The notes: a model not told the origin generated them from the sequence alone. Shown: positions 2,419 to 59,760, counted from the first letter of the stretch. The stretch is DNA of 64,000 bases from a virus (IMGVR_UViG_3300010049_000009:64001-128000); one strand, 5' to 3'. Numbers and translations are program-made.

Positions 2419-3168
2419 TTAACATTTTTTATTCAGGTTTGAAATACCCAATTCTGTATCAGTTTTATTACCATTAACAAGATAAATCTTATTCAAATTT
2501 AAGTCCTTAACTAAAACCGTTTCCTGCATAAATTCATTGGCAATGTTTTCAGCAAATTCTTTTAAACCCTCGCTGCTTATACCATTAATTTCAATCGCAA
2601 GACTTCTATCATTATACACCCGTTCATTATCCCCGACATATTTTCCTTTGAAAAAATTACCAACTGAAAACGCCCCAATAAAATCATCGTGTTTATTTTC
2701 TTTGTTAAAACCACTAACAGTTTTATCAATTTTTTTATCTTTGCCAAATCTATATTGTAAAGATTTTATTATTTGTTTGATTTTATTAACAAAAGAGTTG
2801 TCAGAAAGTTTAACAGCATTAACGGTAGTGGCAAAAACAACAATTCCACCTCTATAATCACTTAAACCATATTGGGTATGATGAACATCTTCTTTGATAA
2901 TGTATTCACCACCCTCGTTTATGTGAAAAGTTTGTTTAGGAACATTGGTATCAAAACTATTATTGTTAATTCTACATTCAGAAAACCAACCACCCTTTTG
3001 ATAGTGACTACCGTTGGGTACTTCTTTCCCACCTGTTGGATGAAAATGTTTAATTTCAACAATATTACCACTTTTTAATATTTTTTTGAACTTCATTCTG
3101 TTGTCAAATTCTTCTATTGACTCGTGATTTTTACCTTCGAGTAAATATCTTATTTTATTAATATTCAT
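2419..3168 (-). CDS. Putative SAM-lyase-like (T3 gp0.3-fold) protein
   Basis: C-terminal GKY...DRSLAIEI...AENIANEFMQETVLV resembles the G-x-Y...QD-x-VL pattern of T3-type SAM lyases (from memory). Confidence 0.45.
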   Translation of the reverse strand: MNINKIRYLLEGKNHESIEEFDNRMKFKKILKSGNIVEIKHFHPTGGKEVPNGSHYQKGGWFSECRINNNSFDTNVPKQTFHINEGGEYIIKEDVHHTQYGLSDYRGGIVVFATTVNAVKLSDNSFVNKIKQIIKSLQYRFGKDKKIDKTVSGFNKENKHDDFIGAFSVGNFFKGKYVGDNERVYNDRSLAIEINGISSEGLKEFAENIANEFMQETVLVKDLNLNKIYLVNGNKTDTELGISNLNKKC

Positions 3169-3195: not shown

Positions 3196-3223
3196 AATAT
3201 AAATACAATATAATTATCCGATC
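3196..3223 (-). promoter_or_regulatory. Bipartite phage promoter motif
   Basis: GATCGGA-N15-TATATTTG. Confidence 0.8.
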
Positions 3224-3273
3224 TATTGTGGATAACCATATTTTATTTATAAATACCATTAAATTAGTATTCA

Positions 3274-3301
3274 AATATAATTCCAAGAAAATAATCCGAT
3301 C
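3274..3301 (-). promoter_or_regulatory. Bipartite phage promoter motif
   Basis: GATCGGA-N15-TATATTTG. Confidence 0.8.
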
Positions 3302-3823
3302 TTAATTGTTATCGTTATCAATTATGAGTTCTAACTCACTGTTGTAGAGAAATGTGTTTATATCAACCTCCCAATCTTTTAAAAAACTATTGAGGCAGGA
3401 GTACCCACTCAAACTCAAATGGTCAATGTATCCTGCATGACGGTGGTATGTATATGGGTGTCCTTCTTTACACTTGTATTCAACATTACCAAATGTATCG
3501 TCAATGATAACGATTTTATGTGGGACAAATTGTTGAATTAATTGAAAACCCTCTGTTCCATAAATTTCCTCAACGGTGTTAAACTTTCGACATTCAAGTT
3601 CCACAACAAGCATTATGGCGTACTTTAATTTGTTGTATGGGTCTGTATATGTTTCATATCCCCAACCGAACTCACAATCTTCCAATGATATTTTAATAAC
3701 ATTGTCTTCTAATGGGAATGATGTTTCTCTTTCATATCCCAATATCATTTTCACACCATAAATACACAAAGAATGTGCGCTACTGCTATTTGTTTCAAAA
3801 ACCTTAAATCTAATCTTTTTCAT
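3302..3823 (-). CDS. FETNSSS-family hypothetical protein
   Basis: N-terminal KVFETNSSSAHSL; EFGWGYE and HAGYIDH shared with 43329..43826. Confidence 0.8.
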   Translation of the reverse strand: MKKIRFKVFETNSSSAHSLCIYGVKMILGYERETSFPLEDNVIKISLEDCEFGWGYETYTDPYNKLKYAIMLVVELECRKFNTVEEIYGTEGFQLIQQFVPHKIVIIDDTFGNVEYKCKEGHPYTYHRHAGYIDHLSLSGYSCLNSFLKDWEVDINTFLYNSELELIIDNDNN

Positions 3824-6090: not shown

Positions 6091-6094
6091 TTCG

Positions 6095-6167
6095 TAGCGG
6101 GGGTGGGACTCGAACCCACGACTTTGGGCTTATGAAACCCAATTGCTAACCACTGCATCACCCCGCA
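6095..6167 (-). tRNA. tRNA-Met(CAT), initiator-like
   Basis: T1:T72 mismatch and fMet-like body; anticodon stem TGGGT/GCCCA. Confidence 0.85.
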
Positions 6168-6207: not shown

Positions 6208-6636
6208 TTAAACCAAATTTTCTGATAAAATATCTAAAACTTCATCTAATAATCCGGATTCCGCTTGTTCATAGTTAGTGAAACCACCACCTAATTTACT
6301 TGCCTCCCCCTTTCCGGGCACATAGTTCAGTAGTTTTACGCTATAATAAAATGTGAAATCAAATGAAAATTCGATAGTTCCAACAACCCCCTTCACATCC
6401 CTACACCATTTTAACGCTAACGCAACAGTCGGAACTGAAACAAAATCCTCATTGTTATTAAAATTATCTAAGTGTTTATAGTCACCAAAAAAATTTTCGT
6501 GAACACAACGACTTTGAAAACTTCGTAAGGTATTTGGGTAGTGGTCGCTAACCCAATAACAATAATATGTTTCCCAATCAAACCCCAATTTTTTAAGCAA
6601 ATCTGCTTGTTCTCTATTTACTAACCCTAATTCCAT
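6208..6636 (-). CDS. Hypothetical protein, paralog of 55112..55480
   Basis: EQA..LK.LGF, PTV..ALK..RD.K and YE.AE..LLD.VL motifs shared. Confidence 0.8.
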   Translation of the reverse strand: MELGLVNREQADLLKKLGFDWETYYCYWVSDHYPNTLRSFQSRCVHENFFGDYKHLDNFNNNEDFVSVPTVALALKWCRDVKGVVGTIEFSFDFTFYYSVKLLNYVPGKGEASKLGGGFTNYEQAESGLLDEVLDILSENLV

Positions 6637-6654
6637 TTCAATTTTATTTATATG

Positions 6655-6861
6655 TTATCCTGCTAAAACACCTACTATAAGACACAGTATGATAAATCCT
6701 ATCGCTAACTTGATTATGAATAATATCACCGGCCACGACAGTTTCAACAAAACTGCTATCAACACTAAAAATAACGGTATCGCTATCAGCGGAAGAAATA
6801 TAATGAGCATTATACCCAATATTATTAAAATAATTTTCCAAATTACATTCAAAACTGTCAT
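6655..6861 (-). CDS. Small membrane protein
   Basis: 68 aa, almost entirely hydrophobic. Confidence 0.7.
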   Translation of the reverse strand: MTVLNVIWKIILIILGIMLIIFLPLIAIPLFLVLIAVLLKLSWPVILFIIKLAIGFIILCLIVGVLAG

Positions 6862-6897: not shown

Positions 6898-6925
6898 AAT
6901 ATAAAAGTAACTTATTAATCCGATG
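6898..6925 (-). promoter_or_regulatory. Bipartite phage promoter motif (variant)
   Basis: CATCGGA-N15-TATATTAG. Confidence 0.7.
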
Positions 6926-7405
6926 TTATAGACATCTGAAATTTTGATTTATATAGGAATAAACCTTTTCCCTCATTTCTTCCTTATCTTTACAATTGTC
7001 GTAAAGACCATCCCACAGGTCTTTATCTGTTTCAAAATCCGGTGTTATTATATATGGTATTCCAAACCGCAGTTGTTGAATGATAAAATCAACGACTTGT
7101 TCTTCATTGAAAGACACAAGGTATTCGTCATTTATTGATCTGAAATATGCATCGGTAAATCTATACCCCAAAGTGGGTTCGGTATTTCCAAGTACGGATT
7201 TGATTATATTCCAGGGGTCTTGCCTCATGGATTGAAATGCTTCGACCATATCCTCTTGATTGTTATTAAAAATAACATCATCATACCATTCATAATAATA
7301 ACAAATCTGATTGTGGATTGATATGAGATTTTCTCTATCAATATTCCGCATAACACCAAGTAATCCGATTACTTTTGGGTGTTCCGAAAAATTATTTGTA
7401 TTCAT
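6926..7405 (-). CDS. Hypothetical protein
   Basis: 159 aa ORF. Confidence 0.75.
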   Translation of the reverse strand: MNTNNFSEHPKVIGLLGVMRNIDRENLISIHNQICYYYEWYDDVIFNNNQEDMVEAFQSMRQDPWNIIKSVLGNTEPTLGYRFTDAYFRSINDEYLVSFNEEQVVDFIIQQLRFGIPYIITPDFETDKDLWDGLYDNCKDKEEMREKVYSYINQNFRCL

Positions 7406-7435: not shown

Positions 7436-7463
7436 AATAAAAGATTTGCAAAATAATCCGATC
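7436..7463 (-). promoter_or_regulatory. Bipartite phage promoter motif (variant)
   Basis: GATCGGA-N15-TTTATT. Confidence 0.6.
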
Positions 7464-10774: not shown

Positions 10775-11194
10775 TTATCCCGCTGGGTCGGGATCGGGTT
10801 CGCCGCCACCGCCGTCACCACTTGGGTCACCGGCACCTGGTTCACCACCACCGTCACCTGGTTCGATTGGTTCACCACCGCCTGTGTCATCACCACCTGC
10901 ACCGTCACCCGGATCAATTGGATCAACGCCACCACCTGTGTCGCCACCGTCACCATGATCAGTGTCAGTTCCCGGTGCGCCGCCACCTACTGTGTCTTTA
11001 CCACCTTTTGCTACTTGTTTTGGATATATGCCTATTTCGTAACTCATATTCTGATCGAAGGTGCAACACCTTTTGGTGCTAATCATTTCACCACATTCAG
11101 GGCACTCAATTTTATTTGCTTCACTGAATACACGTGCTAAAGCGGGTTTATTGACACTTGGAAATTGTTGTTCAATAATATTTGCTGGTTTCAT
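10775..11194 (-). CDS. Protein with CxxC domain and Gly/Asp/Pro low-complexity tail
   Basis: CPECG; repeats DTGGG.(D)PI[DE]PGDG; preceded by CTATTTAT. Confidence 0.75.
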   Translation of the reverse strand: MKPANIIEQQFPSVNKPALARVFSEANKIECPECGEMISTKRCCTFDQNMSYEIGIYPKQVAKGGKDTVGGGAPGTDTDHGDGGDTGGGVDPIDPGDGAGGDDTGGGEPIEPGDGGGEPGAGDPSGDGGGGEPDPDPAG

Positions 11195-11244
11195 AAATTT
11201 AATTTTTTTTAAGTTATTTAATATAAATAGCTACAAAAAATAAT

Positions 11245-18073: not shown

Positions 18074-21000
18074 TTAACTTGAAATAACTTTATAAGAAAT
18101 GTAACAACTTGAAGCAGTAACTTCAATTTTTTGTGCAATAGAAGCATAATTGTTCAAATCATCACGTGTCATTTCTTCTTGTTCTTCATCTTCTTCGTTA
18201 TTGATAAAATCTTCACTAAACCACAAGTAGAGTGTACCTCTATAATTTCTTGGTATTGTTGTATTATCGGATAATGTTGTTGCGGGTGGTTGATTTCCTG
18301 AAAATGGTGTTGTGTGTATCAAGTTTTTACCCTGCATTAGTATTGGTATTGGGTATTCGGGTGCACTGTCAGGAAAATTGGGTAATCTTGTCAAATATGC
18401 AATTTTTTCACCAACTCTATTACTTATATTGTTTTCCCACTCAAAATCAATAACAACACCTGTGTTCATTGCTCTTTCCAAATTCTTGTTACAATTATAA
18501 ACACAGAATGTTAATCTTGGGTCTTGGTCAATCCACCTAAATAATGAAATGTATGTAAACATTTCGAGACCTGTTACATCAGTTGCACTAATACGTAATA
18601 ATCTGTTGATGTCTGTAACCACACAATTTGTTAAAGTTACTTCTATTTGGGGATTACTTGTATCATGAATAGGAAGACCATCAATTCTGTAATTCCACGT
18701 GTTTATTGGAGTGGAAGTTCTTAATCTTATCCATCTACCATTACTACCTACTACACCGGTTGTTGCTTCGGCAGTGCTATCAAACAAATCCCACCCCTGA
18801 GTTGATCGCAAATCCACTGAACCCGTCGCTCTTTCTGTTTCAAATTGCCCCTGTTGTATTCTAACCCTATAACCATGACATTTAAAAGCATTGGTTCCCC
18901 TTATTTCAATGGTTATTTTAACCTCATATCTACTAGGGTCGGTTGCTGATGTGGGTTTACACGTTATTGAATTTTCGTCTATGTAAATATAATTACCAAA
19001 ATCCATTGGTTGGGAAAACGCTCTAACGTGATCTTCATTATCATGTAAAACACTGTAAAATAAAGTCCTTCTGTTGGCAGCACCTGCGGTAACATTTCCA
19101 TGAAACGGTAAAAATAACCCTAATGTTGTTCTACTCTGACTTGCTAAATTAGATAAAATAACATCGGTTGTGTGTTTTCGGGTGTTGGTTGAATATTCAT
19201 CTGCTAAACTTGGTGAACAATTTACCACCGGTTCATTTACTTGGGCATTGATATCGGCATAAACACGCCCATAATTTTCCGTAAAATATGGAAAACTAAA
19301 TCTCATATTCCAATCATCAAGTGTGTTGTAATGTAATAAATCTTCGGGATTTGTTTCGTTTCGTCTCATTGTTACTTCCCCAATAGTTTTATTGCAAAAT
19401 AAATCACTCATCCAATCATAACGTTCCACCGTAACTCTTGGTTGCCAAAAAAACCTACCATTAGAAGATTTGGTTTCTCTTAACAATTGTCCACGTGTTT
19501 TTAAGGTGTTTATAAACACACCACCTAAATAACTACTATCACTCCCGACGGTAGGATATTCATAACTATTATTAGTGTTATTTCTAACAGCAATTGCAAA
19601 ACTATACATAGCACCCTCTATTGAGGTGGTTTCCATTTGCCAACTCTGATCTTCGTTTTGAACCCATGTGCGTATAACACCCCTTCCAACACCCGTTATA
19701 TTTATTTCTGTGGTTCGTGGTGGGTCTATTGATGCAATGCTTGTTCTAGGTGGATCATATCTATATATATTTGCGTGTACACTTGGTTGAGGAAAATAAT
19801 TACTTCCCAAAACACCTTTTCCTCTCACCGTTACCACTTGGGGATAAGAGTATGTTGTTACTCCTGTTGTTTGGTTTGTTGAAGATGTTTGTCTCCGTAA
19901 AACAATTTCAAAATCAGGTTCACTTATATATCCACTTGTTAGGTTGTGCGGTGCGCTTCCAACACCAGGTACTTTACCCCTAAAATTTCCAAGATTAATT
20001 TGGGATAATCTATACAATGTGGTTGTTGTACCATCTTCATTTGTTACTACTCTACTTGTAAATGTAAAAGCACTTGAACCTACGTTGGCGGGGGGGTTAG
20101 AATCATTTGGATTTGGAGTGTTAAATGGGTCAAGAGATGATCCTGGAACAGGAAAGGTACTAAATGTTGCTGCCACACCTTCCCCCACGTTTGAGTGTCT
20201 TACAGTTGGGTTGTTACTACCTGGTTGTCGGTTGTTAATCCCACCACCACTGAAACCACCAATAAAACCGGATGGGCAAGATACCCACCTAATATCAGTT
20301 AAAGACACATTATTAGGTAATTCAAATTCAGGATTACTTTCCATTCTAATACCAACAACCGATCCTGTAACAAATACCGTTATTTCGCTACTAGTATCAT
20401 TATTATTTGAATCACTCAAAATTCGATAATTCTGTCCTATATCATATCCCTCCCCTCTTGTTAATAATCTAAAAAATTGGGGGCGACTACTACTACCGCT
20501 ATTCCATATACTTTCATTTTGGGTCTCCCTTCTTCGCATCCATAAATAAGAACGTGCGCTTTCAAATCTCATTATTGTTCGCCAATGTATTGAAGCACCT
20601 GTTCCTGTACATGTTTTTTGTGGAACAGTATAACCCATTTGATGAAGATTAAATCTATTTAACATTTCACCTAAACCACCACCACTAATAAGTGTATTCA
20701 TAACTTCTGTTTCCAAACTAGGAATATCTACTGTGTGAGAGTAATGATTTGTTACTGTTGTGCAATTAGTGTTAATAAAAGAATAAACTTTATGGTTTCT
20801 ATTAGTAACTTCTAAAAGTAATTCAGGAACCGCTAAATCAGTGCATAAAGTATCTACGGTTTCTATTTGAGTAACGGGGTCTACTATTATTTCCCTTTGT
20901 TCAATAGAAATACCGCCAGCCCCAGTATAACGCCCTGTTGAATAAAAATGTCTAACATTTGGTACTAATAATGGGCAAGTTCCCAAATGTGTTCTATAAT

Positions 21001-24000
21001 CAGTTACAAGTGGTGAAATATTTACAAATACTAAATTATCAGGTGGGTCTTGATCTACGGGTAATGTTTCAAGTGTTCTTATTGTGTGTTCTACCTCCGG
21101 TATTGCATTTCTAATAATATCATCACTTAAATTTGCCCCAACCAAATCAAATTCAGAGTTTTCAACATCTACTGTTAGTTCAAGTAATGGTCCATTCAAA
21201 TAAAAGATACTAAAATATGCGGGAATGTTTCGTTTAGAACATCTGAATGGATCAATATAACCATTGTGTGGTGCAGCAATTCTATTCCACTCTTTAAATA
21301 TTTTAAGTGTTTGATCTAACACGTGAAATTTGAATAAAAATCTATTGTTTGGTGCGTCGGGATTAGCGTGATTCCAATCCGCTATTATTCCATTACTAAA
21401 ATTACTTTCAGGTGTACCATATAATAATTCCCATGCTGAAATATCTTTAAACACCTCATTATTCTGCATTTGTTTTATCTTTAATGAAAGCGAATTGTCA
21501 TAACCACCCGCTCTTCCAATACCGTTCTGACCAATAACAGCAGCATAAAAACCACCCGGTTCATATCTTAATCTATCATTTGTTGTGTTTGGGTATGTTT
21601 GTATTGGTATTCTTGATGTTGTAAACACAAGGTCTTCGGGTGTTAAATTATTTCTTTCAGCAACACATAGGTTAGTTGTTTGATTAGGTGTGGTAAGTGC
21701 TGCTGGTGTGGTATACACAACATTTTGGTCATTACGTACTCTATATGTACCTATTAACCCATTCATTGACGATTGTTGTGTTTGGTACGGTATATCATTA
21801 AAATTGTATGGCGATTGAAACGGTGGGGTTTCAGTATCTTTATTAAGAGAATTATATGAGTCGCTTGCACATAATAAATAACGTGGTCTTGATGGATTAC
21901 CACCATGTGTTTCAATTTTTATTGCACCATATAATAAAGTTCGCATTGGTGGAAAATAACCTGTTCCATTTAATTGTATAATCGGTATGTCTGTACTACA
22001 TGTTGGCATCCACATTTCCTTTAATAAAGAAATTTTTTCTCTTATATTTCTTTCATTAGTTTCATCAAGCGCACCATCATACCACTTCTTAAATTCAGTT
22101 AATAATGTTGCTTCATTTTTACCAACGGTTCCACGTAAAAATTTAAAAAATTCATCCCACCACCTATTATCTTGTGGGGTAACTATCTGTTGATTCGGTG
22201 TCCCATGATTGATGGTTTGTGGTAAAAAATATTTAGCATAAAGACTTTCATCTCTGAATATTAAACTTATTCCGGGTTGTGTTGAAACAATAATACTGTC
22301 ACAATATATATCTCTATTAACACAGGTGGTTGTGGGACTATCAACTGAATTTTTACCTACTAAACATATTCTATATTCACCCTCACAAAGATATAATCTA
22401 AATCCTGACCACGTTCTTCTATTTTCATCGGATAAATTATTATAAACACTTGTAATACTATCGGGTATATTATAAGTTTGGGTTTGTGCCACAAGCATAC
22501 TCATGCGTTCAATTAAATAATCCCCCTGTGGATAACCGGTTGCGGTTTGTGGAGATTGTATTGTACCAAATTCATCAACTAACTGTGTTGTTAATATTCC
22601 ACCAGCAGCATTAGTTGTTAATACTTCAACATATAATAACCCATTACCAAGTACCCCATATGCCCCACTTTTATACCCACTTCCCCGATTTGTGGTTTTA
22701 ATCGCGACTACGCCAGTTTGACTAACAGTGAAAATAGCATCCCTACCTATATTAATTTCTTGTCGTCTGACCTCTAAATTATAATTATCTAAAATACAAT
22801 TTTTAATACTTATGTTAGTTATATTTTCTAACACAACCATTGCACAAGTTTCCCTATGTCTTTCTTCAAAAATACAATTACAATTACTTAATAATCTCCC
22901 ACATGTTACACAATTAGGATTATTTGGTGCTCTAAGTGGGGGCATACAAGTTACACTACTACTCACTTCATCAAATATTGGTGAAACCTCCCTTAAATTA
23001 AAAATCACCTTATTTTGATATCTCAATGTGAATGTGCTTTGACTTATATTACCATAATCATCAACAAATGAAACAGAAAATGTTCCCTCATTTGCAAATT
23101 CAGGGTGTTGTATATTCAAAGAAGTTACGGAAACAGATATTAGGGTTTCATTATTAAGGGTGTTAACAGAAACCGAATTAGTTGTTATTGTGTAATTACC
23201 TAATGTGTGTAATGACACACCATCACTATTTCTTATTATTATTTTATAGTCACTACTACTCCCAATAACCTCAATTTTAATACTTGGTGGGGGAATTGTA
23301 AGTAGAGGTGGTTGTGTTGGTCGTATTCTCGCACAATTACAAATATATGGGTGTGTTACCACATTTACTTGTATTTGAACAGTTTCGTCTGTTGATTGAA
23401 AGCATTGTGCTGTGAATTTTTGACGTAATTTTTCTATTGCAGTTGACCCTGATTTAATACCAAAATAAAAATAAAATGAATTAATTGGTTGAAAAAAACT
23501 CATGTGTCTAATATTTTTTTCCTCTTCAACACTTAACGCAATACTTGTATTTAATGTTCGGAGACCATATCTGAAATATAAATATTCCGGATCAATATAA
23601 CTTTCGTTTAGCGCATTATAACGATTTGTAACAGCATTATTTTGTCTTGCATTTGCATCTGTAACCGATGATTGATTGAAGATTCCTCTTAATCTACCAT
23701 CAAAATTTGTAGGGTACACATATTCAAAATTATAATATTTTTTACCCTTATTGGATATTAAATTATCAGATAGTTCGTCATTTTCTAATCTATATCTATT
23801 CAAACAAGAATATTTACCATCAATAGGTTGATTAAGTGTAGCAAACTGTTGCCGTGTTTCAACCCCACGAATGAGTTGATCTTTACCAATCCAACCCTGT
23901 GGTGTTACAAATACACCGGTTGCATCATTAGCATCACATACACCTTCAATTGCGTGATATATGTCTAAATCAACACCTAATTCACATATTCTTTCTAAAT

Positions 24001-26761
24001 TTACACAAGTTTTTATTTTTGTTTCAAATCGAGTACACCCAATACCATAAAACAAACCACCCGAATTATTTACACTATGAATACGATATGAACCAGCGGT
24101 CTCCCTTAATCGTTGGTCGGTAAGATTTCTTCCGCCAGCGGAACCCCAATTTTTACCGGAAGCAATAAATATACTTTCATCCCAAACAATTTCATCCCTA
24201 CCCTCAGTTGAAGAAGAACCTTCACTTATCACTTTTATTTGATAATCTATTTCATACATTGGACCCGGCATTTGATATGTTGTAATGGGTAATTCTTTAT
24301 ATAAACCCCAAATACCGTGTTTATTACATTTATCTAATGAACCTATTAAAATAACATCTGTTTTGAATAGATTAATATTTTTACCATTATTTGATGTTCT
24401 TTCTGCGATTGGTCTGTAATAATATTCATAAATTGGTTCACCATTTATATCTTCCCCAATTTTTTCTCTATTAATAAATGGTTCTGCAAGTTCTATTTCA
24501 GTGTATTCTTCATGACATTTTTGTTTATTTATACGTGCTTTTTCATGACTTTTTAATCTAATTCTACCATTAAATGTATATTCATACATATTATCATAAC
24601 AACCCCTAAATTCTTCGTCAAATAAACGTAATTCTATGTGGTTGGTAGTGTTAATTTTATATTTTGGTGAACATATTTTGTAAACTCTTGTTTTTTTAAT
24701 ACCAAATTCAACCAATTTTGAAATACCAACGGTAGTGCCGGATGATCTTTGTATCCATTCTTCACCCTCAAATGAACAAACATCCTCATAATTTGTGACT
24801 TTCTTTTTTCCAAAAATACCTAAAAATTTTCTTCTACTCTTTTTTCTTTTTTGAAAATTAAAGGTTGGAAAATATAAAACACCATTAACCCAATCATTAG
24901 TAAAATTAAAAAATGACACCCCTATACCTTCGGCTAATGTTGTTATAACACAATCCCAAATACTATCAGGGTTTGTTGTTCTTGGAATACCACCATATGA
25001 ATCTGTGGTGTCTTTCATTTCCTCTATTATATGTCTACAACCCATCTCCTCATTTCCGCTACCACCACATCTACCAAAACTAAAATGAAAACTAGACGCA
25101 CCGGGACAACCTTGTTTAGAGTCGTTCACAGCAAAACAACCAGGATATAATAAAATATCAGTATATTGACACCAAGAAGGATCAATGTGCATACATTTCA
25201 AATTAGGACTACAAATAATTTGACTCATAAGACGACAAACATCTATACATAAACAAAACCCAATATAATTACGTAATATAGTAACACCGGGATTTAATTG
25301 TAATCTGCACGATAATTTAGTTAGTGCGGTAATAAATTGATTCCAAACCCTTTGAAATTCGATAACTATTGCTGATATTGCACATAATATTGAGAATTGT
25401 GTTGGTAAATGACTTCTCATTTCATTGTATGGAAACGGAAGTGAGGATGCGTGGTTTTGAATATTTTTAATTCCTGTATTATTTTGTGTTCGCGGTGATT
25501 TGGTTGATTGAATACGTGGAATATATGATTTTACACTATATATATTGTTTTTAAACATTGAAACAAATAAATGTTTCGGTGTATCTTTGCTTAATGTATA
25601 ATCTCTTTCTGCCGGTATATTCGGATTATGTGGTACTAAATAACACGCCTTTTTTTTATGTAGTTCTTCCGGTTGTTCTATTTTTATTTTAAATCTCACA
25701 TCAGTTCTTGATGGAATACCAATGGTGGGATTGTCTGATAAGACCTCATTACCAAACTCGTCTGTTGTATAATAATCTAAATTCATTGGTATTTGATAAC
25801 ACCAAACACCGTCACCATCAATAAGTTGATTTCCTTTAATTTTATAATTAACTATTCTACCGTCAGGTTCTAGTCTTATCATTTCAATAGTACCCTGTTT
25901 GGCGGTTAAATCCTTCATTTCACCCAACGCCGCCTGAGGTAAACAAGAAGTGTATGTTGTTGCGTTATCACTGTCTGTTATTATACTACCGATAAAAATG
26001 CAGGTTGTTTCAAATCTATATGATATGTTAATATCGTGTCTTGTAATACCTACCTCATCTTCACTACCATCACCCCAAAACGGATATACATAAACGGAAG
26101 AATCTTCGGCAAACACCTGCGCCAAGTTATCTAAATTTGTATCTTTTTTGAATTGTGTGCTACTTTCAAATTGATCCACCGAATACCCCTTGTAATACAT
26201 ATCACGTGGCATTTGGGATAAATGACCACAATCCGATAGGTCAATATCACAATGCACTTGATTACTTCCAATCGGAATACCAAACAACATATAATCCCCA
26301 CTGTTATTTGTAACTGTTGAATATTTATAATAGTTGTCAAAAATTTCTAATATATCATTGTTATCAAGAATAGCCCGTTTCAACGGAAAAGTACCTATTA
26401 CTTGATGACATTCATCAATATTTTTGTTTGCAAATAGGTTGTATCTTATGTTTTGATAATTTTTATCAAATGACGTGTCGTATGGATACAAAACACGTTT
26501 TTCAATACTTCTTTTTGAGGATTCTGTTATCGGAATAAATATAGATATGCGCGCATTGGGGACACCAACCCCACCATTTGCCATTACTCTACCTATGATA
26601 CAACCATATTCAGAACGTGGTGTTCTGTATAGATTTTTTTGGTCTAATTTTAGTGATAGAATATCAACGAAATCATAATCCTGATTTAGTGTGATATTTA
26701 ATTTAGTACTATCACCTGTTTTTGGTGTTGTCCTTACACGATATGATTTATTCGGGTTCAT
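18074..26761 (-). CDS. Giant putative virion structural protein (tail/baseplate-associated)
   Basis: 2895 aa uninterrupted ORF; N-terminal IIGRV..NGGVGVPNARISIF carboxypeptidase-regulatory-like beta domain; Thr/Asn/Ser-rich beta-type C-terminal two thirds. Confidence 0.6.
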   Translation of the reverse strand: MNPNKSYRVRTTPKTGDSTKLNITLNQDYDFVDILSLKLDQKNLYRTPRSEYGCIIGRVMANGGVGVPNARISIFIPITESSKRSIEKRVLYPYDTSFDKNYQNIRYNLFANKNIDECHQVIGTFPLKRAILDNNDILEIFDNYYKYSTVTNNSGDYMLFGIPIGSNQVHCDIDLSDCGHLSQMPRDMYYKGYSVDQFESSTQFKKDTNLDNLAQVFAEDSSVYVYPFWGDGSEDEVGITRHDINISYRFETTCIFIGSIITDSDNATTYTSCLPQAALGEMKDLTAKQGTIEMIRLEPDGRIVNYKIKGNQLIDGDGVWCYQIPMNLDYYTTDEFGNEVLSDNPTIGIPSRTDVRFKIKIEQPEELHKKKACYLVPHNPNIPAERDYTLSKDTPKHLFVSMFKNNIYSVKSYIPRIQSTKSPRTQNNTGIKNIQNHASSLPFPYNEMRSHLPTQFSILCAISAIVIEFQRVWNQFITALTKLSCRLQLNPGVTILRNYIGFCLCIDVCRLMSQIICSPNLKCMHIDPSWCQYTDILLYPGCFAVNDSKQGCPGASSFHFSFGRCGGSGNEEMGCRHIIEEMKDTTDSYGGIPRTTNPDSIWDCVITTLAEGIGVSFFNFTNDWVNGVLYFPTFNFQKRKKSRRKFLGIFGKKKVTNYEDVCSFEGEEWIQRSSGTTVGISKLVEFGIKKTRVYKICSPKYKINTTNHIELRLFDEEFRGCYDNMYEYTFNGRIRLKSHEKARINKQKCHEEYTEIELAEPFINREKIGEDINGEPIYEYYYRPIAERTSNNGKNINLFKTDVILIGSLDKCNKHGIWGLYKELPITTYQMPGPMYEIDYQIKVISEGSSSTEGRDEIVWDESIFIASGKNWGSAGGRNLTDQRLRETAGSYRIHSVNNSGGLFYGIGCTRFETKIKTCVNLERICELGVDLDIYHAIEGVCDANDATGVFVTPQGWIGKDQLIRGVETRQQFATLNQPIDGKYSCLNRYRLENDELSDNLISNKGKKYYNFEYVYPTNFDGRLRGIFNQSSVTDANARQNNAVTNRYNALNESYIDPEYLYFRYGLRTLNTSIALSVEEEKNIRHMSFFQPINSFYFYFGIKSGSTAIEKLRQKFTAQCFQSTDETVQIQVNVVTHPYICNCARIRPTQPPLLTIPPPSIKIEVIGSSSDYKIIIRNSDGVSLHTLGNYTITTNSVSVNTLNNETLISVSVTSLNIQHPEFANEGTFSVSFVDDYGNISQSTFTLRYQNKVIFNLREVSPIFDEVSSSVTCMPPLRAPNNPNCVTCGRLLSNCNCIFEERHRETCAMVVLENITNISIKNCILDNYNLEVRRQEINIGRDAIFTVSQTGVVAIKTTNRGSGYKSGAYGVLGNGLLYVEVLTTNAAGGILTTQLVDEFGTIQSPQTATGYPQGDYLIERMSMLVAQTQTYNIPDSITSVYNNLSDENRRTWSGFRLYLCEGEYRICLVGKNSVDSPTTTCVNRDIYCDSIIVSTQPGISLIFRDESLYAKYFLPQTINHGTPNQQIVTPQDNRWWDEFFKFLRGTVGKNEATLLTEFKKWYDGALDETNERNIREKISLLKEMWMPTCSTDIPIIQLNGTGYFPPMRTLLYGAIKIETHGGNPSRPRYLLCASDSYNSLNKDTETPPFQSPYNFNDIPYQTQQSSMNGLIGTYRVRNDQNVVYTTPAALTTPNQTTNLCVAERNNLTPEDLVFTTSRIPIQTYPNTTNDRLRYEPGGFYAAVIGQNGIGRAGGYDNSLSLKIKQMQNNEVFKDISAWELLYGTPESNFSNGIIADWNHANPDAPNNRFLFKFHVLDQTLKIFKEWNRIAAPHNGYIDPFRCSKRNIPAYFSIFYLNGPLLELTVDVENSEFDLVGANLSDDIIRNAIPEVEHTIRTLETLPVDQDPPDNLVFVNISPLVTDYRTHLGTCPLLVPNVRHFYSTGRYTGAGGISIEQREIIVDPVTQIETVDTLCTDLAVPELLLEVTNRNHKVYSFINTNCTTVTNHYSHTVDIPSLETEVMNTLISGGGLGEMLNRFNLHQMGYTVPQKTCTGTGASIHWRTIMRFESARSYLWMRRRETQNESIWNSGSSSRPQFFRLLTRGEGYDIGQNYRILSDSNNNDTSSEITVFVTGSVVGIRMESNPEFELPNNVSLTDIRWVSCPSGFIGGFSGGGINNRQPGSNNPTVRHSNVGEGVAATFSTFPVPGSSLDPFNTPNPNDSNPPANVGSSAFTFTSRVVTNEDGTTTTLYRLSQINLGNFRGKVPGVGSAPHNLTSGYISEPDFEIVLRRQTSSTNQTTGVTTYSYPQVVTVRGKGVLGSNYFPQPSVHANIYRYDPPRTSIASIDPPRTTEINITGVGRGVIRTWVQNEDQSWQMETTSIEGAMYSFAIAVRNNTNNSYEYPTVGSDSSYLGGVFINTLKTRGQLLRETKSSNGRFFWQPRVTVERYDWMSDLFCNKTIGEVTMRRNETNPEDLLHYNTLDDWNMRFSFPYFTENYGRVYADINAQVNEPVVNCSPSLADEYSTNTRKHTTDVILSNLASQSRTTLGLFLPFHGNVTAGAANRRTLFYSVLHDNEDHVRAFSQPMDFGNYIYIDENSITCKPTSATDPSRYEVKITIEIRGTNAFKCHGYRVRIQQGQFETERATGSVDLRSTQGWDLFDSTAEATTGVVGSNGRWIRLRTSTPINTWNYRIDGLPIHDTSNPQIEVTLTNCVVTDINRLLRISATDVTGLEMFTYISLFRWIDQDPRLTFCVYNCNKNLERAMNTGVVIDFEWENNISNRVGEKIAYLTRLPNFPDSAPEYPIPILMQGKNLIHTTPFSGNQPPATTLSDNTTIPRNYRGTLYLWFSEDFINNEEDEEQEEMTRDDLNNYASIAQKIEVTASSCYISYKVISS

Positions 26762-27232: not shown

Positions 27233-27260
27233 GATCGGATTGTTTCATACCTTTTATATT
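27233..27260 (+). promoter_or_regulatory. Bipartite phage promoter motif (plus strand)
   Basis: GATCGGA-N15-TATATTAG pointing at plus-strand gene 27314. Confidence 0.8.
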
Positions 27261-27313: not shown

Positions 27314-27625
27314 ATGGAAAAAATGTTAGGTATTTGGTACATTATTTATGGTTTTTTTTACCGCTTGTTTACACGTAAAGAGCGTTATTGTTATGTAGTT
27401 GAAAAAAGTTTTGCTGATGTAGAATTACCACCAGCGTTTGTTTTGGGTGTTTATAGTAATGAAAAATCAGCAGTCGTTGCCACCAAAGAAGCAGCAAAGA
27501 GTGCTATAAATTATTGGAATAGACCATTATTATTCCGTGTTGTAGAAAGGGTTATTGACCAAGATATGGAATGGGGAAATATAGTGTACAACGAAAAGGT
27601 TTTTGATTTTAAAACCAATCCTTAA
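27314..27625 (+). CDS. Hypothetical protein
   Basis: 103 aa ORF with its own promoter motif. Confidence 0.7.
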   Translation: MEKMLGIWYIIYGFFYRLFTRKERYCYVVEKSFADVELPPAFVLGVYSNEKSAVVATKEAAKSAINYWNRPLLFRVVERVIDQDMEWGNIVYNEKVFDFKTNP

Positions 27626-31146: not shown

Positions 31147-32409
31147 ATGAGGGTTAGAATAACAGAAAATCAGTTACGGAAAATAATCAGTGAACTTATT
31201 TTGGAATCGTCAATGTCAGCGAAGGAAATATACCAAAAACATTATAAGGATATTTCCGAAGATGTTTTTACCAAAATAGTTAGTGCTGATATTGTTACAA
31301 GTAATTTGGAAAGAGATAAATTGGGTGGTTACGCAAAGTGGTTGCTTAAAATATACGCAATGGGTAATTTGAAATTAGAGGATTTGTATAAAGCCAAAGA
31401 ATATATTCCCACTTTTCATAAATTGAGTAAATCCAATAAACTTCAACAAAAAGATATTAACTTGTATAAAAAATTATCTGATATGTATGTTGCTATCAAA
31501 CCATATTTAGAAGGTGGGGAAGCAACCTCAAAAGGTGATGAAATCAGAAAAATTAAACACGAAGGCGCAGATAAATTGTATGAAGATGCGAAATTTATAT
31601 TTCTACATATAAAAACGTGGGAAGCAGCAAAATACTACGGTAAAAACACCGAATGGTGTACCGCCTCAAACGATGATAGAAGTTATTTTGATCATTACAA
31701 TAGTGAAGGTGAACTTTATATCATAATAGATAAAACACAAAATCGTAAATATCAATTCTATTTTGAAGATGAAGAAATTGGTCAATTTATGGATGAAAAT
31801 GATAGCGAAGTATCACAACCAATTCTTTCAAATATCGGCGCAACAGAAGGTTTAAAAAATTTCCTTAAAGAATTTAATCCCCAATATTATTTAGAATTAC
31901 AGTTTGAATTGGCGGTAGACCACAATGACAAATTTCTTGTTAAAATAGATGGTAAATCCGCATATTTGGATAAAGAATATAACCGACTAACACCATTTTA
32001 CGATTCTATAACCGGCCCACTTGGTGGTGGTGTATATCGTGTTAGAAATGGTGAAAAAAATGGATTTTTGGATTCTAAATACAATATTATTGTTCCAATA
32101 GAATATAAATTTTATTCATTGGGGGGTGCTGTTTATAGTAAAGAACCAAATAGTGATAAAGATTATTTAGTCGTTGGGAATGATAATAAATGGGGTTATA
32201 TGGAAACCATGAATGGTAGATTTCTTATCGAACCAAAATACGATTATTTGTCAAGTATAGGTGTTGAACCACTTATTTTTATGGCAAGATTAAATAATAG
32301 GTGGGGGTTAGTAGATAGTAATGGTAAAATTTTAGTTCCACTTGTATTTGACGACAAATGGGGATTAATGCGTTCCAAAGAATATCAAAAATATGATCCC
32401 GATAACTAA
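31147..32409 (+). CDS. Leader-bearing PcfJ-like (WCT) domain protein with WG repeats
   Basis: MRVRITENQLRKIISE leader; GKNTEWCTAS..YF.HY; KWGYM, RWGLVDSNGKILVP. Confidence 0.7.
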   Translation: MRVRITENQLRKIISELILESSMSAKEIYQKHYKDISEDVFTKIVSADIVTSNLERDKLGGYAKWLLKIYAMGNLKLEDLYKAKEYIPTFHKLSKSNKLQQKDINLYKKLSDMYVAIKPYLEGGEATSKGDEIRKIKHEGADKLYEDAKFIFLHIKTWEAAKYYGKNTEWCTASNDDRSYFDHYNSEGELYIIIDKTQNRKYQFYFEDEEIGQFMDENDSEVSQPILSNIGATEGLKNFLKEFNPQYYLELQFELAVDHNDKFLVKIDGKSAYLDKEYNRLTPFYDSITGPLGGGVYRVRNGEKNGFLDSKYNIIVPIEYKFYSLGGAVYSKEPNSDKDYLVVGNDNKWGYMETMNGRFLIEPKYDYLSSIGVEPLIFMARLNNRWGLVDSNGKILVPLVFDDKWGLMRSKEYQKYDPDN

Positions 32410-32477: not shown

Positions 32478-34145
32478 TTATACCACACCATATTTTTCCT
32501 TCAATTGTCTAATTTCTTCTTGCAATTCTTTTTCACGTCTTCTCGATTCTTCTTGTGTTGCTTGCATTTCTTCCATATTTTGACGCAATTCTTCTTCGGC
32601 GTTTGCCATTTCTTCTGTTTGCATCCTTGTTTGGTTGAGCAACTGTTCTGTTCGGATATTGATTCTAACTGTTGAAATTGTAGAAGCAATACTTTCACTT
32701 ACCTTCTTAACGAAATCAATCTTATATGGTTCAAGTTTTTCAAAGGCAGCAAACTCTATAACACCATATATCACATTATTTACCTTTAATGGGCAAATCA
32801 ACACACATTTTGGGGCAGCATCACCCAATCCCGATGTTATGTTAATGTAATTTTCGGGTACGTCTGTTATGTATATAATGTCACCTTCAAGATAACAAGC
32901 ACCTACCAACCCCTCACCCGGATTAATGGTTTTTTCTGTGAATTTTTTGCGGTCAAATGCGTAACACCCCTTCAATTCCAATACTTTTTCTTCATTTTCT
33001 TCTGTTGTATTCAGTATGAATATTCCACCCTGATTTACACCCAAATATTTAACCAAATTACTAATAATATTGTATGACAGTGCTTCTAAATCACTATTGT
33101 CTTGACGAAGTATTTCGGCAAACTTTGCGATACCCGATGTGCCCCAATTTCTTTCTTCTTCTTCCTTTGCTCTAATACCCCTTTCGGTTTCAGCATCACG
33201 AATGTTTTTTCTCATTTCAAGTAACGAATTACCCAACATATCCACCTCACTCATAGGTTGAAATTCTCTATCCAAATTTCCTTCCCCAATATCTTGGGCA
33301 AAACGGGTTGTTTCCTTTATACCCTCAACCAATTGTTTTAATTCGTTCTTCATTGTACCAATTTCATCAAGAACCTTACTTTCTTCTATATCAAGGTTGG
33401 AATCACCTACCGATAACTTTCGGATTATAGCAGTAACGTCTTTTATGGGTTTGATTAATATGTAATTGAAACTTGTAAAGTTCACCGCCAACAATATTAT
33501 TAAAATAGTAACCGCTATTATACTAATAATAATCATTTGGGTTTTACTATTTTGACTAATAGTGATTTTTATTTTGGTCATATCTATACCTATGAATAAT
33601 ATACCAATTACATCCTTTGTGTTGGGACTAAATATTGGGTTGTATATAACTAAACAATTCATTCCGAATATGTTTGCTGTTCCATAAAATCTTTCTCCCG
33701 CCTGCATACTTGAAAATGCTACGTGGGTGTTTCCTAAATGTGTATCCACCATTCTTTTTCCCTCATTATCTCTAATGTTGGTGGTAACTCTTCGGTAATC
33801 ACTACCTTCTCTAACAAATATGGTTGTGAGCGCACCGCCCATATTTTCATACATTCTATCCACAAGAGTATAATCATAATGTATGGAAGAATCGTTTTCG
33901 GATACAAGCATCCTGTTCCTTAATCTTAATGTACCGTATTGGTTTTCAATAAGATTCTCAAAATACAACATATCATCTCGAAGTTTGTCGTATCCCATTA
34001 TGGTAGCGGTTTCCATACTTGAATTACGTGTCGAATTGATACTTATTATTGATAGTATAACTATCGCCGCTACTGTAAATATCGTTGATATACTTAACAA
34101 TTTTGTTAATATACCGCCTTTTTGTTTGATAAGTTTAACTTTCAT
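32478..34145 (-). CDS. Membrane sensor: TM-Cache-TM-HAMP-GAF-coiled coil, no output domain
   Basis: TIFVREG.DYRRVTTNI..EGKRMVDT (Cache); DEIGTM (HAMP); YLGVNQGGIF, GEGLVG.CY, LICPLK..VIEFAAF (GAF). Confidence 0.85.
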   Translation of the reverse strand: MKVKLIKQKGGILTKLLSISTIFTVAAIVILSIISINSTRNSSMETATIMGYDKLRDDMLYFENLIENQYGTLRLRNRMLVSENDSSIHYDYTLVDRMYENMGGALTTIFVREGSDYRRVTTNIRDNEGKRMVDTHLGNTHVAFSSMQAGERFYGTANIFGMNCLVIYNPIFSPNTKDVIGILFIGIDMTKIKITISQNSKTQMIIISIIAVTILIILLAVNFTSFNYILIKPIKDVTAIIRKLSVGDSNLDIEESKVLDEIGTMKNELKQLVEGIKETTRFAQDIGEGNLDREFQPMSEVDMLGNSLLEMRKNIRDAETERGIRAKEEEERNWGTSGIAKFAEILRQDNSDLEALSYNIISNLVKYLGVNQGGIFILNTTEENEEKVLELKGCYAFDRKKFTEKTINPGEGLVGACYLEGDIIYITDVPENYINITSGLGDAAPKCVLICPLKVNNVIYGVIEFAAFEKLEPYKIDFVKKVSESIASTISTVRINIRTEQLLNQTRMQTEEMANAEEELRQNMEEMQATQEESRRREKELQEEIRQLKEKYGVV

Positions 34146-35097: not shown

Positions 35098-35706
35098 TTA
35101 TATTTCTTCATCCGGTTTTGTTATGAAAGTATCAGTGAAACATTTTTCACAATATTCGTCATTGAGATATTTACAAGAACTTTCATATTTCAATTCTTCA
35201 CCACACATACAACAAATAGTGTTAAAGTTGGGTAAACTTGACATTTCTTCTATCCAAAATTGTAATTTGCGATAGATTTCTTTGTACGCAGAGGTAGGAA
35301 TTTTATATGTTTTCATAACTTCCATACCAAACAACCACTTCACTTTGATATAATCAAAATCACTTACACCTATTCTTTCTTTACCATCTATTTTGGTAAT
35401 AGATAAAATCGGTGAACCACTCCTCAGTGTGTCATTCAATGTTGCCACTTGTGGTATATTGTGTTGAAATATCAAATATTCCATATTGTTGAAGTTTATG
35501 AGAAAAGTGTCACCAACCATTGAGTTGAGTTTGCGACATATTTCGTCTTTCACCCTCATTTCTTTTAACCTTAACGCTTCTTCTTCAAGTTCCTCTGTTA
35601 ATTTATGTTCCATAAACTCTTCAAAACTTTTTGTTTTCCATTTGAGAATATCCTCATCCGTAACGTGTAACGTTATAACTCTTTGTTTATTCATCGTCTG
35701 TTTCAT
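35098..35706 (-). CDS. Hypothetical protein with C-terminal CxxC...CxxC
   Basis: CCMCG...CEKC. Confidence 0.7.
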   Translation of the reverse strand: MKQTMNKQRVITLHVTDEDILKWKTKSFEEFMEHKLTEELEEEALRLKEMRVKDEICRKLNSMVGDTFLINFNNMEYLIFQHNIPQVATLNDTLRSGSPILSITKIDGKERIGVSDFDYIKVKWLFGMEVMKTYKIPTSAYKEIYRKLQFWIEEMSSLPNFNTICCMCGEELKYESSCKYLNDEYCEKCFTDTFITKPDEEI

Positions 35707-35732: not shown

Positions 35733-35760
35733 AATAAATGTCCTGCATATTAATCCGATC
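35733..35760 (-). promoter_or_regulatory. Bipartite phage promoter motif (variant)
   Basis: GATCGGA-N15-TTTATT, lying inside a 12-bp inverted repeat. Confidence 0.65.
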
Positions 35761-48723: not shown

Positions 48724-48948
48724 TTATTCGGTTATATAATAATCTTTAAGGTTTTCAATAAACCACTTTGAATCAAACTCCGCTTTTTCACGTAGGTTCA
48801 TTTCAAGATAGTTTGAATTTCGTGCATCGTACATATGCTTACATATCAAGGTTATTACTTCACCCTGATTGTATGTCGGCGATACAAGATGTTTGCTTCC
48901 CTTTATAAATTGTGTTACCGATGCAATATATTCCTTTAATGTGCTCAT
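48724..48948 (-). CDS. Hypothetical protein
   Basis: 74 aa ORF downstream of a promoter motif. Confidence 0.65.
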   Translation of the reverse strand: MSTLKEYIASVTQFIKGSKHLVSPTYNQGEVITLICKHMYDARNSNYLEMNLREKAEFDSKWFIENLKDYYITE

Positions 48949-48977: not shown

Positions 48978-49005
48978 AATATAATGGTAGAATATTATTC
49001 CGATC
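48978..49005 (-). promoter_or_regulatory. Bipartite phage promoter motif
   Basis: GATCGGA-N15-TATATTGT. Confidence 0.8.
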
Positions 49006-56265: not shown

Positions 56266-56293
56266 AATATAGATATGATATATTAATCCGATC
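56266..56293 (-). promoter_or_regulatory. Bipartite phage promoter motif
   Basis: GATCGGA-N15-TATATTGG. Confidence 0.8.
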
Positions 56294-58816: not shown

Positions 58817-58844
58817 AATATAAATACAACATATTAATCCGATC
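58817..58844 (-). promoter_or_regulatory. Bipartite phage promoter motif
   Basis: GATCGGA-N15-TATATTAG. Confidence 0.8.
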
Positions 58845-59732: not shown

Positions 59733-59760
59733 AATATAAAATTAAAATATTATTCCGATC
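59733..59760 (-). promoter_or_regulatory. Bipartite phage promoter motif
   Basis: GATCGGA-N15-TATATTCG. Confidence 0.8.

Follow-up and report, generated by a model that had tools for sequence, protein, structure and literature searches.

A rigidly spaced bipartite motif is the proposed main non-late promoter class of an uncultivated 367-kb Bacteroidales phage and is probably read by one of its own sigma factors

We analysed a 64,000-nucleotide stretch of viral DNA (IMGVR_UViG_3300010049_000009:64001-128000, referred to below as the window) for a bipartite element, GATCGGA-N15-TATATT, which an initial annotation had described as a phage promoter. The window comprises bases 64001–128000 of one 367,155-bp contig, the genome of an uncultivated Bacteroidales phage (the focal phage). 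The record has a GC content of 33.6%, carries terminal repeats and is rated complete; no exact terminal repeat longer than 50 nt was found in it. Our analysis indicates that the element is the main non-late promoter class of this phage. Positions below are those of the window unless marked as genome positions, and open reading frames (ORFs) were taken from a crude ORF map.

The initial annotation listed ten copies, and a copy was found at each of the ten positions. Seven are exact, six on the minus strand (3196, 3274, 48978, 56266, 58817, and 59733) and one on the plus strand (27233), while 0.00 exact copies were expected from 100 dinucleotide shuffles, which agrees with the earlier estimate of far less than one by chance. 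The other three have one mismatch each, CATCGGA at 6898 and TTTATT at 7436 and 35733. The 15-nt spacer is present in all ten. Every copy is intergenic or abuts a stop codon and points into the next gene, including the plus-strand copy, as had been claimed, and the co-oriented ORFs start 7–106 nt downstream. A whole-genome scan with a position weight matrix (PWM) found these ten sites in the window and none besides. Two matches with two mismatches, at 27707 and 39727, fall under the PWM threshold and are probably due to chance.

Two exact copies stand in tandem on the minus strand. The proximal one (3196..3223) lies 28 nt 5′ of ORF 2419-3168, which encodes 249 aa; the distal one (3274..3301) is 106 nt 5′ of the same target and adjoins the stop codon of ORF 3302-3823. 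Both second boxes end in TATATTTG, the Bacteroidota −7 element, as the initial annotation had noted. It had also taken ORF 2419-3168 as one of two targets resembling S-adenosylmethionine (S-AdoMet, SAM) lyases. No Pfam or PHROG match was found for this ORF, and the assignment held only for the other target, ORF 55506-56234 (242 aa; S-AdoMet lyase family, PF23780, E 1.5e-6), which begins 32 nt downstream of the exact minus-strand copy at 56266..56293. The targets recorded as clpX and a methyltransferase were recovered. The exact copy at 58817..58844 (minus) is 29 nt 5′ of ORF 57631-58788, a ClpX-like AAA+ ATPase of 385 aa, and that at 59733..59760 (minus) is only 7 nt 5′ of the ATG of ORF 58854-59726, an N6/N4 DNA methylase of 290 aa whose mRNA may be leaderless or almost so.

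The copies at 6898..6925 and 7436..7463, both on the minus strand, lead into the tRNA cluster, in line with the gene block named earlier. The former, of the CATCGGA form, is 37 nt 5′ of ORF 6655-6861, which is followed by ORF 6208-6636 and the cluster itself (tRNA-Met 6094-6167 onward). The latter has the TTTATT second box and is 31 nt 5′ of ORF 6926-7405 (159 aa). The other TTTATT copy, at 35733..35760 (minus), lies 27 nt 5′ of ORF 35098-35706, a 202-aa protein for which no family match was found. The exact minus-strand copy at 48978..49005 is 30 nt 5′ of ORF 48724-48948 (74 aa), and the sole plus-strand copy, at 27233..27260, is 54 nt 5′ of ORF 27314-27625 (103 aa).

An alignment of all ATCGGA-N15-T(A/T)TA(A/T)T sites in the genome gave the consensus R-S-ATCGGA-W-TAAYAT-N7-TTATATT. 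Information is held in two blocks, at positions −2 to 12 and 20 to 26, with a low-information gap from 13 to 19. The upstream box is 15 nt long and asymmetric, not palindromic, and in its core, S-ATCGGA, C is commoner than G. The PWM identified 91 sites of at least 18 bits in the genome, ten of them in the window, against about none in first-order Markov controls; the strict 20-position form accounts for 50 sites. The class is therefore far larger than the ten copies first described, and CATCGGA, rather than GATCGGA, is its commoner form. All 87 pairs of S-ATCGGA and T(A/T)TATT have a spacer of 15 nt, and no other spacing between 10 and 20 occurs. When R-S-A-T-C-G is taken as a −35 hexamer, it is 17 bp from TATATT. 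Two blocks with a fixed low-information spacer are the form of a sigma-70-family bipartite promoter. The base before TATATT is T in 79 of 88 sites and G in none, nine of the 91 second boxes end in TTTG to give the full TATATTTG, position 27 is mixed (T37/A35/G13), and position 28 is mostly A (A54/G24). The 17 bases further upstream of the motif hold no information, which indicates that the conservation is the motif's own and does not reflect recent duplication of intergenic DNA.

About 90% of the bases in the sites are non-coding, and thus about 10% coding, against 93% coding for the genome as a whole, and the next gene is co-oriented for 87 of 90 sites. The ATG follows the last T of TATATT at a median of 32 nt, mostly 26–44 nt, and the leaders are A-rich without a Shine-Dalgarno sequence, as is usual in Bacteroidota. 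With transcription assumed to start about 7 nt after the second box, the leaders would be about 25 nt long. The modal mRNA leader in Bacteroides thetaiotaomicron is 23 nt (PMC7366714), and this match counts in favour of a promoter. A run of eight tRNA genes, led by tRNA-Tyr, begins 14 nt after the end of the copy at genome 35739. The presence of the signal before RNA genes indicates that it is transcriptional and not translational. Placement, orientation, the gap to the start codons, the copy preceding the tRNA genes, two-block profile, and rigid spacing all fit the earlier proposal of a phage promoter whose upstream box replaces the −33 TTTG.

Hairpins were found between −50 and +21 at 57 of the 91 sites, compared with 24% of shuffled controls. 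Many of them consist of a GC stem and a T-run just upstream of the site, with differing sequence and position, and most look like terminators of the upstream genes. About 10–15 enclose the upstream box. One of these is at window site 48978, where the box lies in the loop of a 6-bp hairpin 3′ of the preceding gene; at 27233..27260 a hairpin likewise overlaps the upstream box. A hairpin promoter of the N4 type was considered and rejected, because there is no conserved stem among the site-near hairpins.

The 91 sites fall into two groups. Sixty-two form an array that runs from about 331.5 kb to the record end and on to 3 kb at the record start, at a density of about one copy per 600 bp, each before a gene of 40–250 codons. 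The remaining 29, among them all ten copies in the window, are dispersed. The typical upstream box is CATCGGAATAAYAT in the array and GATCGGATTAATAT among the dispersed copies. The base before ATCGGA is typically C in the array and G in the dispersed group (p = 2e-8), and that after it A and T, respectively (p = 2e-4). The median PWM score is 36.8 bits in the array and 27.6 bits outside it (p = 1e-7). In 29 of 62 array copies and 1 of 29 dispersed copies, the second box is followed at about 5 nt by a TATAA-like word. Since many of the site-near hairpins are GC stems with T-runs upstream, the array can be described as a chain of terminator, promoter, and small gene.

Two other repeats were noticed in the array. 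A perfect 14-nt palindrome, TACTCAAATGAGTA, occurs in 17 copies in the focal phage, all of them in or beside the small-gene array (genome 333795-366062 and 764-4856). It recurs between the units of the array, and in many cases only a few bases separate it from the ATCGGA box that follows. Possible roles are those of a conserved terminator, of a processing site, or of a recombination hotspot of the kind represented by the promoter(early) stem-loop (PeSL) cassettes. The sequence CTATTTTAACA and its reverse complement TGTTAAAATAG form three clusters of 3–4 copies each in the array's few long intergenic gaps (genome 337819-337872, 339963-340030, and 340746-340932), which look like operator arrays for a DNA-binding protein.

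The annotated targets of the ATCGGA class are the N6/N4 methylase, the ClpX-like ATPase, S-AdoMet-lyase-family proteins, a SAM synthetase, UvrD, ParB, an HD-kinase, RpiB, all four sigma operons, and the small-gene array. Every target that could be annotated is non-structural. The SAM genes among them are an odd combination. A MetK-like SAM synthetase with all three domains adjoins an S-AdoMet-lyase-family gene (genome 285047-287196), so that SAM-making and SAM-destroying genes stand side by side; the second lyase-family gene is the one in the window at 55506-56234, and all of the SAM genes are behind ATCGGA promoters.

Two other promoter classes were identified in the genome. The late class, CTATTTATA, has 46 sites, of which 43 are intergenic, at a median of 18 nt before a co-oriented ATG, and it heads the genes of the portal, tail sheath, and virion structural proteins. 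Variants such as CTATTTATT raise it to roughly 60. In the window its 5′ ends are at 11230, 31125, 34184, 55047, and 56933 (genome 75230, 95125, 98184, 119047, and 120933), and the ORFs behind these copies are 10775-11194, 31147-32409, 32478-34145, 53107-55011, and 56293-56907. Hybrids of the ATCGGA and late classes are found at genome 286300-286330 and 352419-352445, where the late motif encloses the second box of the ATCGGA class (CTATTTATATT). The gene of a 231-aa sigma factor lies downstream of one hybrid promoter and of a further late promoter, and this factor may be expressed both early and late.

An unbiased k-mer enrichment on the remaining upstream regions yielded (T)G-TATATTTG, that is, the Bacteroidota −7 box. 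About 35 genes have G-TAnnTTT(G/A), some with TTTG 19–20 nt upstream, and many of these host-type promoters have no clear TTTG at −33. Their targets include a family-B DNA polymerase, a DnaB-like helicase, an SNF2 helicase, a STAS protein, and DnaJ. Several G-TAnnTTTG boxes end 5 nt before the ATG, as for the family-B DNA polymerase gene (genome 253311, 274575, 144323, 145420, 22081, and 307555; window 47941, genome 111941). Leaderless mRNAs are predicted from this distance. The late and host-type classes being separate and the annotatable ATCGGA targets being non-structural, the ATCGGA class is assigned to pre-late expression.

The ATCGGA class shares some features with the promoters of the Bacteroidota primary sigma (sigma-ABfr), which have TTTG at −33 and TAnnTTTG at −7. 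Its second box, TA..TT, is in the same place as the −7 element, and the A-rich leaders without Shine-Dalgarno sequence are of similar length. However, the −7 octamer TAnnTTTG is complete in only 9 of 91 sites, the upstream TTTG is absent, and the distance between the boxes is both different and fixed, with ATCG 17 nt from TATATT, not 19–21 nt. The phage's own host-type sites favour G before TA and a TTTG tail, whereas the ATCGGA sites do neither and have T in place of that G. A −10 context so unlike that of the host-type promoters in the same genome suggests a different sigma factor rather than host sigma-A with a helper.

Outside the focal genome the motif was found only as isolated matches. 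The strict motif had no match in any other IMG/VR contig, and with a relaxed 14-base pattern no contig had more than one hit among the matches listed. In 185,579 prokaryote genomes there were 35 single hits, mostly at one conserved Campylobacter concisus locus and with one in a Bacteroidales genome, and 241 million metagenome records gave 45 single hits. A host regulon was therefore rejected, the hits in prokaryotes being single chance occurrences, and the motif is not common to other sampled phages.

Four complete sigma-70-family genes with regions 2 and 4 were identified in the focal genome, together with a weak gp55-like candidate. Sigma-369 and sigma-304 are a tandem pair of RpoD/RpoS-like factors (sigma-304 at genome 269107-270021), sigma-231 is the 231-aa factor mentioned above, and ECF-193 (genome 329745-330326) is a 193-aa sigma of the extracytoplasmic function (ECF) type beside the 62-promoter array. 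Domains of the beta and beta-prime subunits of RNA polymerase and of T7-type polymerases (PF00940, PF00562, PF00623) were looked for in the complete genome, and none was found. Jumbo phages with sigma factors typically lack their own polymerase (PMC7824862), and with sigma factors present and no polymerase found, the focal phage matches this group. The initial annotation had suggested a phage sigma factor or activator as the reader. The four complete sigma genes support the first option; for the second, MotA (PF09114, PF09158) and AsiA (PF09010) had no match at E ≤ 1 in the complete genome, where remote analogues are possible. Another candidate regulator, a 394-aa protein with several helix-turn-helix matches (41211-42395, minus strand), was dismissed because of its strong PHROG matches to HNH homing endonucleases (phrog_3377, E 2e-80), which make a mobile endonuclease gene probable.

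A comparison was made with a sister phage, IMGVR_UViG_3300009784_000001, a complete genome of 359,943 bp with a GC content of 26%, which was located through its portal protein (50% identical). The ATCGGA-N15-TATATT family was not found there; one hit with one mismatch was obtained, compared with 3–4 for a reversed control pattern. The commonest upstream words in this genome are TATCTTTG and TACCTTTG, and 68 intergenic sites align as TTATTAACAT-N6-TTTG(G)-N19/20-TA(T/C)CTTTG(T). These are true members of the Bacteroidota primary-sigma class, that is, canonical promoters with an additional upstream block, and most are in a small-gene array at about 39–83 kb. The two arrays are homologous, as 11 of the 12 focal array genes with a sister homologue map into the sister array. 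Fifteen ATCGGA-headed genes have an orthologue in the sister. At least eight of these, including the ClpX-like gene (ORF 57631-58788 in the window, with a TAnnTTTG box instead in the sister), ParB, and the HD-kinase, have a host-type box directly upstream there; the rest are operon-internal, and none of the 15 has the ATCGGA motif. The late word CTATTTAT is common to both phages.

The sigma genes differ as well. The sister has orthologues of sigma-369 (43% identical), sigma-231 (36%), and the gp55-like factor (35%), and a single gene in place of the 369/304 pair. No ECF-193 homologue was found in it (best tblastn E 0.59), and a hidden Markov model census (PF04542) of the sister gave three sigma-like genes, none of them ECF-like. 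The motif and ECF-193 are thus jointly absent from the sister (n = 1), and sigma-304 shows the same pattern. ECF-193 lies within a run of 14 genes abutting the array (genome 325864-331476), 13 of which have no sister homologue; in the whole focal proteome this is so for 348 of 508 proteins. The sister, which has neither the motif nor these two sigma genes and uses host promoters, adds further evidence to the sigma factor proposal.

Some features of the sister array deserve separate mention. The block TTATTAACAT, conserved 6 nt upstream of the −33 TTTG, may act as an UP-like element or bind a regulator. The word TAACAT is common to this block and the focal motif, but its distance from the start site differs between the two and the likeness is probably a coincidence. 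The palindrome TACTCAAATGAGTA has at least three copies in the sister array (44987, 49110, and 52422) despite the different promoters.

Taken with the sigma inventory, the contrast between the two phages suggests that the reader of the ATCGGA class is probably one of the phage's own sigma factors, the best candidates being ECF-193 and sigma-304, both absent from the sister. We consider it reasonably probable that the element is the promoter of the main pre-late class and that the host core polymerase is directed to it by a phage sigma-70-family factor. Host sigma-A would first transcribe the sigma genes from the host-type promoters heading their blocks. The phage sigma would then read R-S-ATCGGA-W-TAAYAT (15 nt, about −35 to −21) and, exactly 7 nt from this box, TTATATT (7 nt, about −13 to −7), and the transcript would begin about 7 nt beyond TTATATT, with a leader of about 25 nt. 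The new sigma would fire the 91 private promoters, several of which are upstream of sigma genes and would amplify its own supply, and late genes would follow from the separate CTATTTATA class.

Several points weigh against this reading. Initiation and the start site, like the identity of the reading protein, are what we infer; what the sequences show is the motif with its statistics and its position in the genome, the gene classes, the set of sigma genes, and the contrast with the sister. The phyletic argument comes from one sister genome, and the 348 proteins without a homologue in it leave room for an unrecognised focal-specific factor. The sequence does not separate ECF-193 from sigma-304, and sigma-231 and sigma-369, at 36–43% identity to their sister orthologues, could also have changed specificity. 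An all-A/T −10 of the TAnnnT type is atypical for ECF sigmas, and the 15-nt box enters the would-be spacer (−29 to −21), beyond the usual reach of sigma region 4. Finally, all of the sigma genes are behind ATCGGA promoters, so that seeding would need an inferred read-through from host-type promoters.

An alternative is sigma appropriation. In an arrangement like that of T4 middle promoters, host sigma-A would bind TATATT, and a phage activator that escaped recognition, perhaps aided by a co-factor that disables sigma region 4, would bind the ATCGGAWTAAYAT box near −28 and replace the −33 contact. We regard this as unlikely. The geometry resembles that of T4. T4 middle promoters join a host −10 to a MotA box of 9–10 bp centred at −30 and 12 ± 1 bp from the −10 (PMC2988021), and in the focal phage ATCGGAWTAA ends 11 bp before TATATT and is centred near −28. 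The asymmetric box would fit a monomeric binder and reaches further into the spacer than a usual −35 element, the second box resembles a relaxed host −7 with its nine full TATATTTG copies, the targets (tRNAs, DNA metabolism, and late-factor genes) mirror T4 middle genes (PMC2988021), and there is space for a new factor among the 348 proteins. But the MotA spacing varies by one base pair to either side while that of ATCGGA is invariant, neither the N- nor the C-terminal MotA domain nor an AsiA homologue was found in the genome, and two complete focal-specific sigmas would be left with no visible regulon. The lack of G before TA and the unconserved TTTG tail also point to a different sigma region 2/3. 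The same lack of a favoured G speaks against a scheme that we consider improbable, in which host sigma-A acts on TATATT alone and ATCGGA is an operator at which a phage repressor or timing regulator turns all members off or on together. The −33 element is weak or dispensable in some Bacteroidota, many focal host-type promoters have no clear TTTG there, and one box common to 91 promoters is indeed what a class-wide regulator needs. However, an operator would need no invariant 15-nt distance (87 of 87) across a non-conserved spacer, the box is not palindromic, and the sister keeps the full TTTG and −7 elements for the orthologues, which indicates that −33 matters for strong early expression in this clade.

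That the orthologous sister array is host-type, and that dense small-gene arrays with a promoter per gene are classically read early by the host sigma in T4 (PMC2988021) and SPO1 (PMC13401047), could also mean that these are oddly built strong early promoters recognised directly by the unmodified sigma-A holoenzyme. We find this very improbable, since there is no −33 TTTG, the box is 17 and not 19–21 nt before the second box, the full TAnnTTTG is present in just 9 of 91, and no Bacteroidota or other genome searched has more than one copy of the motif. Canonical host-type promoters elsewhere in the phage, before the family-B polymerase, DnaB-like helicase, and SNF2 genes, indicate that the host consensus is within its repertoire and that the ATCGGA class is a consistent departure from it. 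The reader might in principle be no sigma-dependent enzyme at all. Divergent phage polymerases escape Pfam, several giant proteins of this phage have no family match, and one of them, the 2895-aa product of ORF 18074-26761 (minus strand), for which no match was found in Pfam, PDB sequences, or the phage collection, might be a divergent virion RNA polymerase. A D-E-D-G-D motif is present in one 870-aa late protein, but chance alone would give about one DxDGD hit, and neither PDB nor Atlas comparisons support a polymerase there. Against such an enzyme, which we judge highly improbable, are also the lack of beta, beta-prime, and T7-type domains in the genome, the two-block profile, which is sigma-like and unlike the continuous promoters of single-subunit polymerases, the lack of a conserved hairpin of the N4 kind, and the typical absence of an own polymerase from jumbo phages that carry sigmas (PMC7824862).

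If a phage sigma is the reader, the choice between ECF-193 and sigma-304 depends on features of both genes. The all-A/T TAnnnT-type −10, which is of the group 1–3 style and near the host −7, favours sigma-304, as does its being a tandem duplicate of a host-like sigma with a diverged −35-reading helix. Typical ECF boxes are an AAC-type −35 and a CGT/GTC-type −10. These were not found in the ATCGGA class, where the −10 is TTATATT and the upstream box holds GGAAT/GGATT, 3–4 bp nearer the −10 than a canonical ECF −35. Autoregulation and high sequence stringency are typical of ECF sigmas (PMC7776599), and the invariant spacing and extreme stringency of the motif favour ECF-193, as do its position in a focal-specific block beside the array and the usual ECF autoregulatory layout. 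The transcription unit of ECF-193 has a site at its head, at genome 327948, with two more sites upstream in the same block, yet the other sigma operons have an equally autoregulatory layout, which makes it non-discriminating. ECF-193 is followed, in a translationally coupled ATGA overlap, by a 50-aa hydrophobic peptide and then a 135-aa multi-pass membrane protein (genome 330323-330894). These are possible anti-sigma partners; no anti-sigma domain or zinc motif was recognised in either.

Two other lines of comparison did not identify the reader. The region 4.2 helices were aligned with those of two primary sigmas of one Bacteroidales genome (TRERVRQI in the host). The helix of sigma-369 is host-like (TTERIRQI), while those of sigma-304 (PNHRAAGLF), sigma-231 (SQERVSQL), and ECF-193 (PEGTAKAYV) are divergent, so the comparison of regions 2.4 and 4.2 was set aside as a pointer. 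The position of host-type "seed" promoters was discarded for the same purpose, because both candidate blocks have one at the head. The ECF-193 block has TTTG-N20-TATATTTG at genome 314595, with no plus-strand terminator found between it and ECF-193, and the sigma-369/304 block has TTG-TATGTTTG at genome 266254. Host sigma-A could therefore provide the first supply of either sigma, which might then amplify its own expression from the ATCGGA promoters within its block. In sequence searches, the only relative found for sigma-369 was a second assembly of the same phage, and no relative of ECF-193 above 35% identity was found.

Phage sigmas that redirect the host polymerase to private promoters are well known, as in SPO1 gp28, phiEco32, 7-11, and T4 late and middle transcription. 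In the cascade of Bacillus phage SPO1, host sigma-A serves early, gp28 middle, and gp33/34 late genes. The focal phage resembles SPO1 in that a small phage sigma would take the host core to a private bipartite promoter whose −10 is A/T-rich, in a cascade with a separate late class and no phage-encoded polymerase. It differs in its unrelated motif, its Bacteroidota host, and its sigma genes, of which four are complete and a gp55-like factor comes in addition. In SPO1, host sigma-A reads the dense array of small host-takeover genes at the terminus (PMC13401047), whereas the focal small-gene array carries the private promoter. With T4 middle promoters the focal class shares a host-like −10 hexamer, a phage box in place of −35/−33, a similar geometry, about 60–90 copies before tRNA, DNA-metabolism, and late-factor genes, and a T4-like single-box late class. 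It differs from them in the lack of a detected MotA/AsiA homologue, the invariant spacing, the non-host −10 context, and the presence of complete sigmas. The ECF-like sigmas of coliphage phiEco32 (gp36) and Salmonella phage 7-11 (gp47) have private promoters (PMC8948821), and there too a phage sigma-like protein takes the host core to a phage-specific consensus. Those are small podoviruses of Enterobacteria, while the focal class has 91 members in a 367-kb genome. The array is also like T4-type PeSL cassettes in its order of terminator or stem-loop, promoter, and small gene, a likeness of architecture alone, but its promoters are not host-type.

What is new here is the motif itself, and a private promoter that serves a whole early-type array and not a middle class alone. 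New as well is the contrast with the sister, in which a homologous host-sigma regulon appears to have turned private alongside the gain of sigma genes. A bolder reading, which we put forward only tentatively, is that, of two homologous arrays with about 60 small early genes each, the focal phage converted essentially the whole of its own, and the dispersed early genes, from host sigma-A to the private class. It includes a reader that was either gained (ECF-type) or made by duplication (sigma-304), and a rewiring that was wholesale and recent. If true, such a conversion could let the phage inactivate host sigma-A at once, and if the new sigma were also made late and packaged, transcription could begin with the injected factor.

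Most genes of the focal phage have no known function, and the three promoter classes provide a map of its transcription units and temporal classes, drawn from sequence, for an uncultivated 367-kb Bacteroidales phage. A stringent, host-orthogonal pair of sigma and promoter would be an expression tool for gut Bacteroidota, which are poor in orthogonal parts. The two sister phages represent a natural experiment in regulatory evolution, in which the same early array is served by host-sigma promoters in one and by private promoters in the other, where two sigma genes were gained as well, and the switch of a regulon to a new sigma would be testable with a handful of proteins and promoters.

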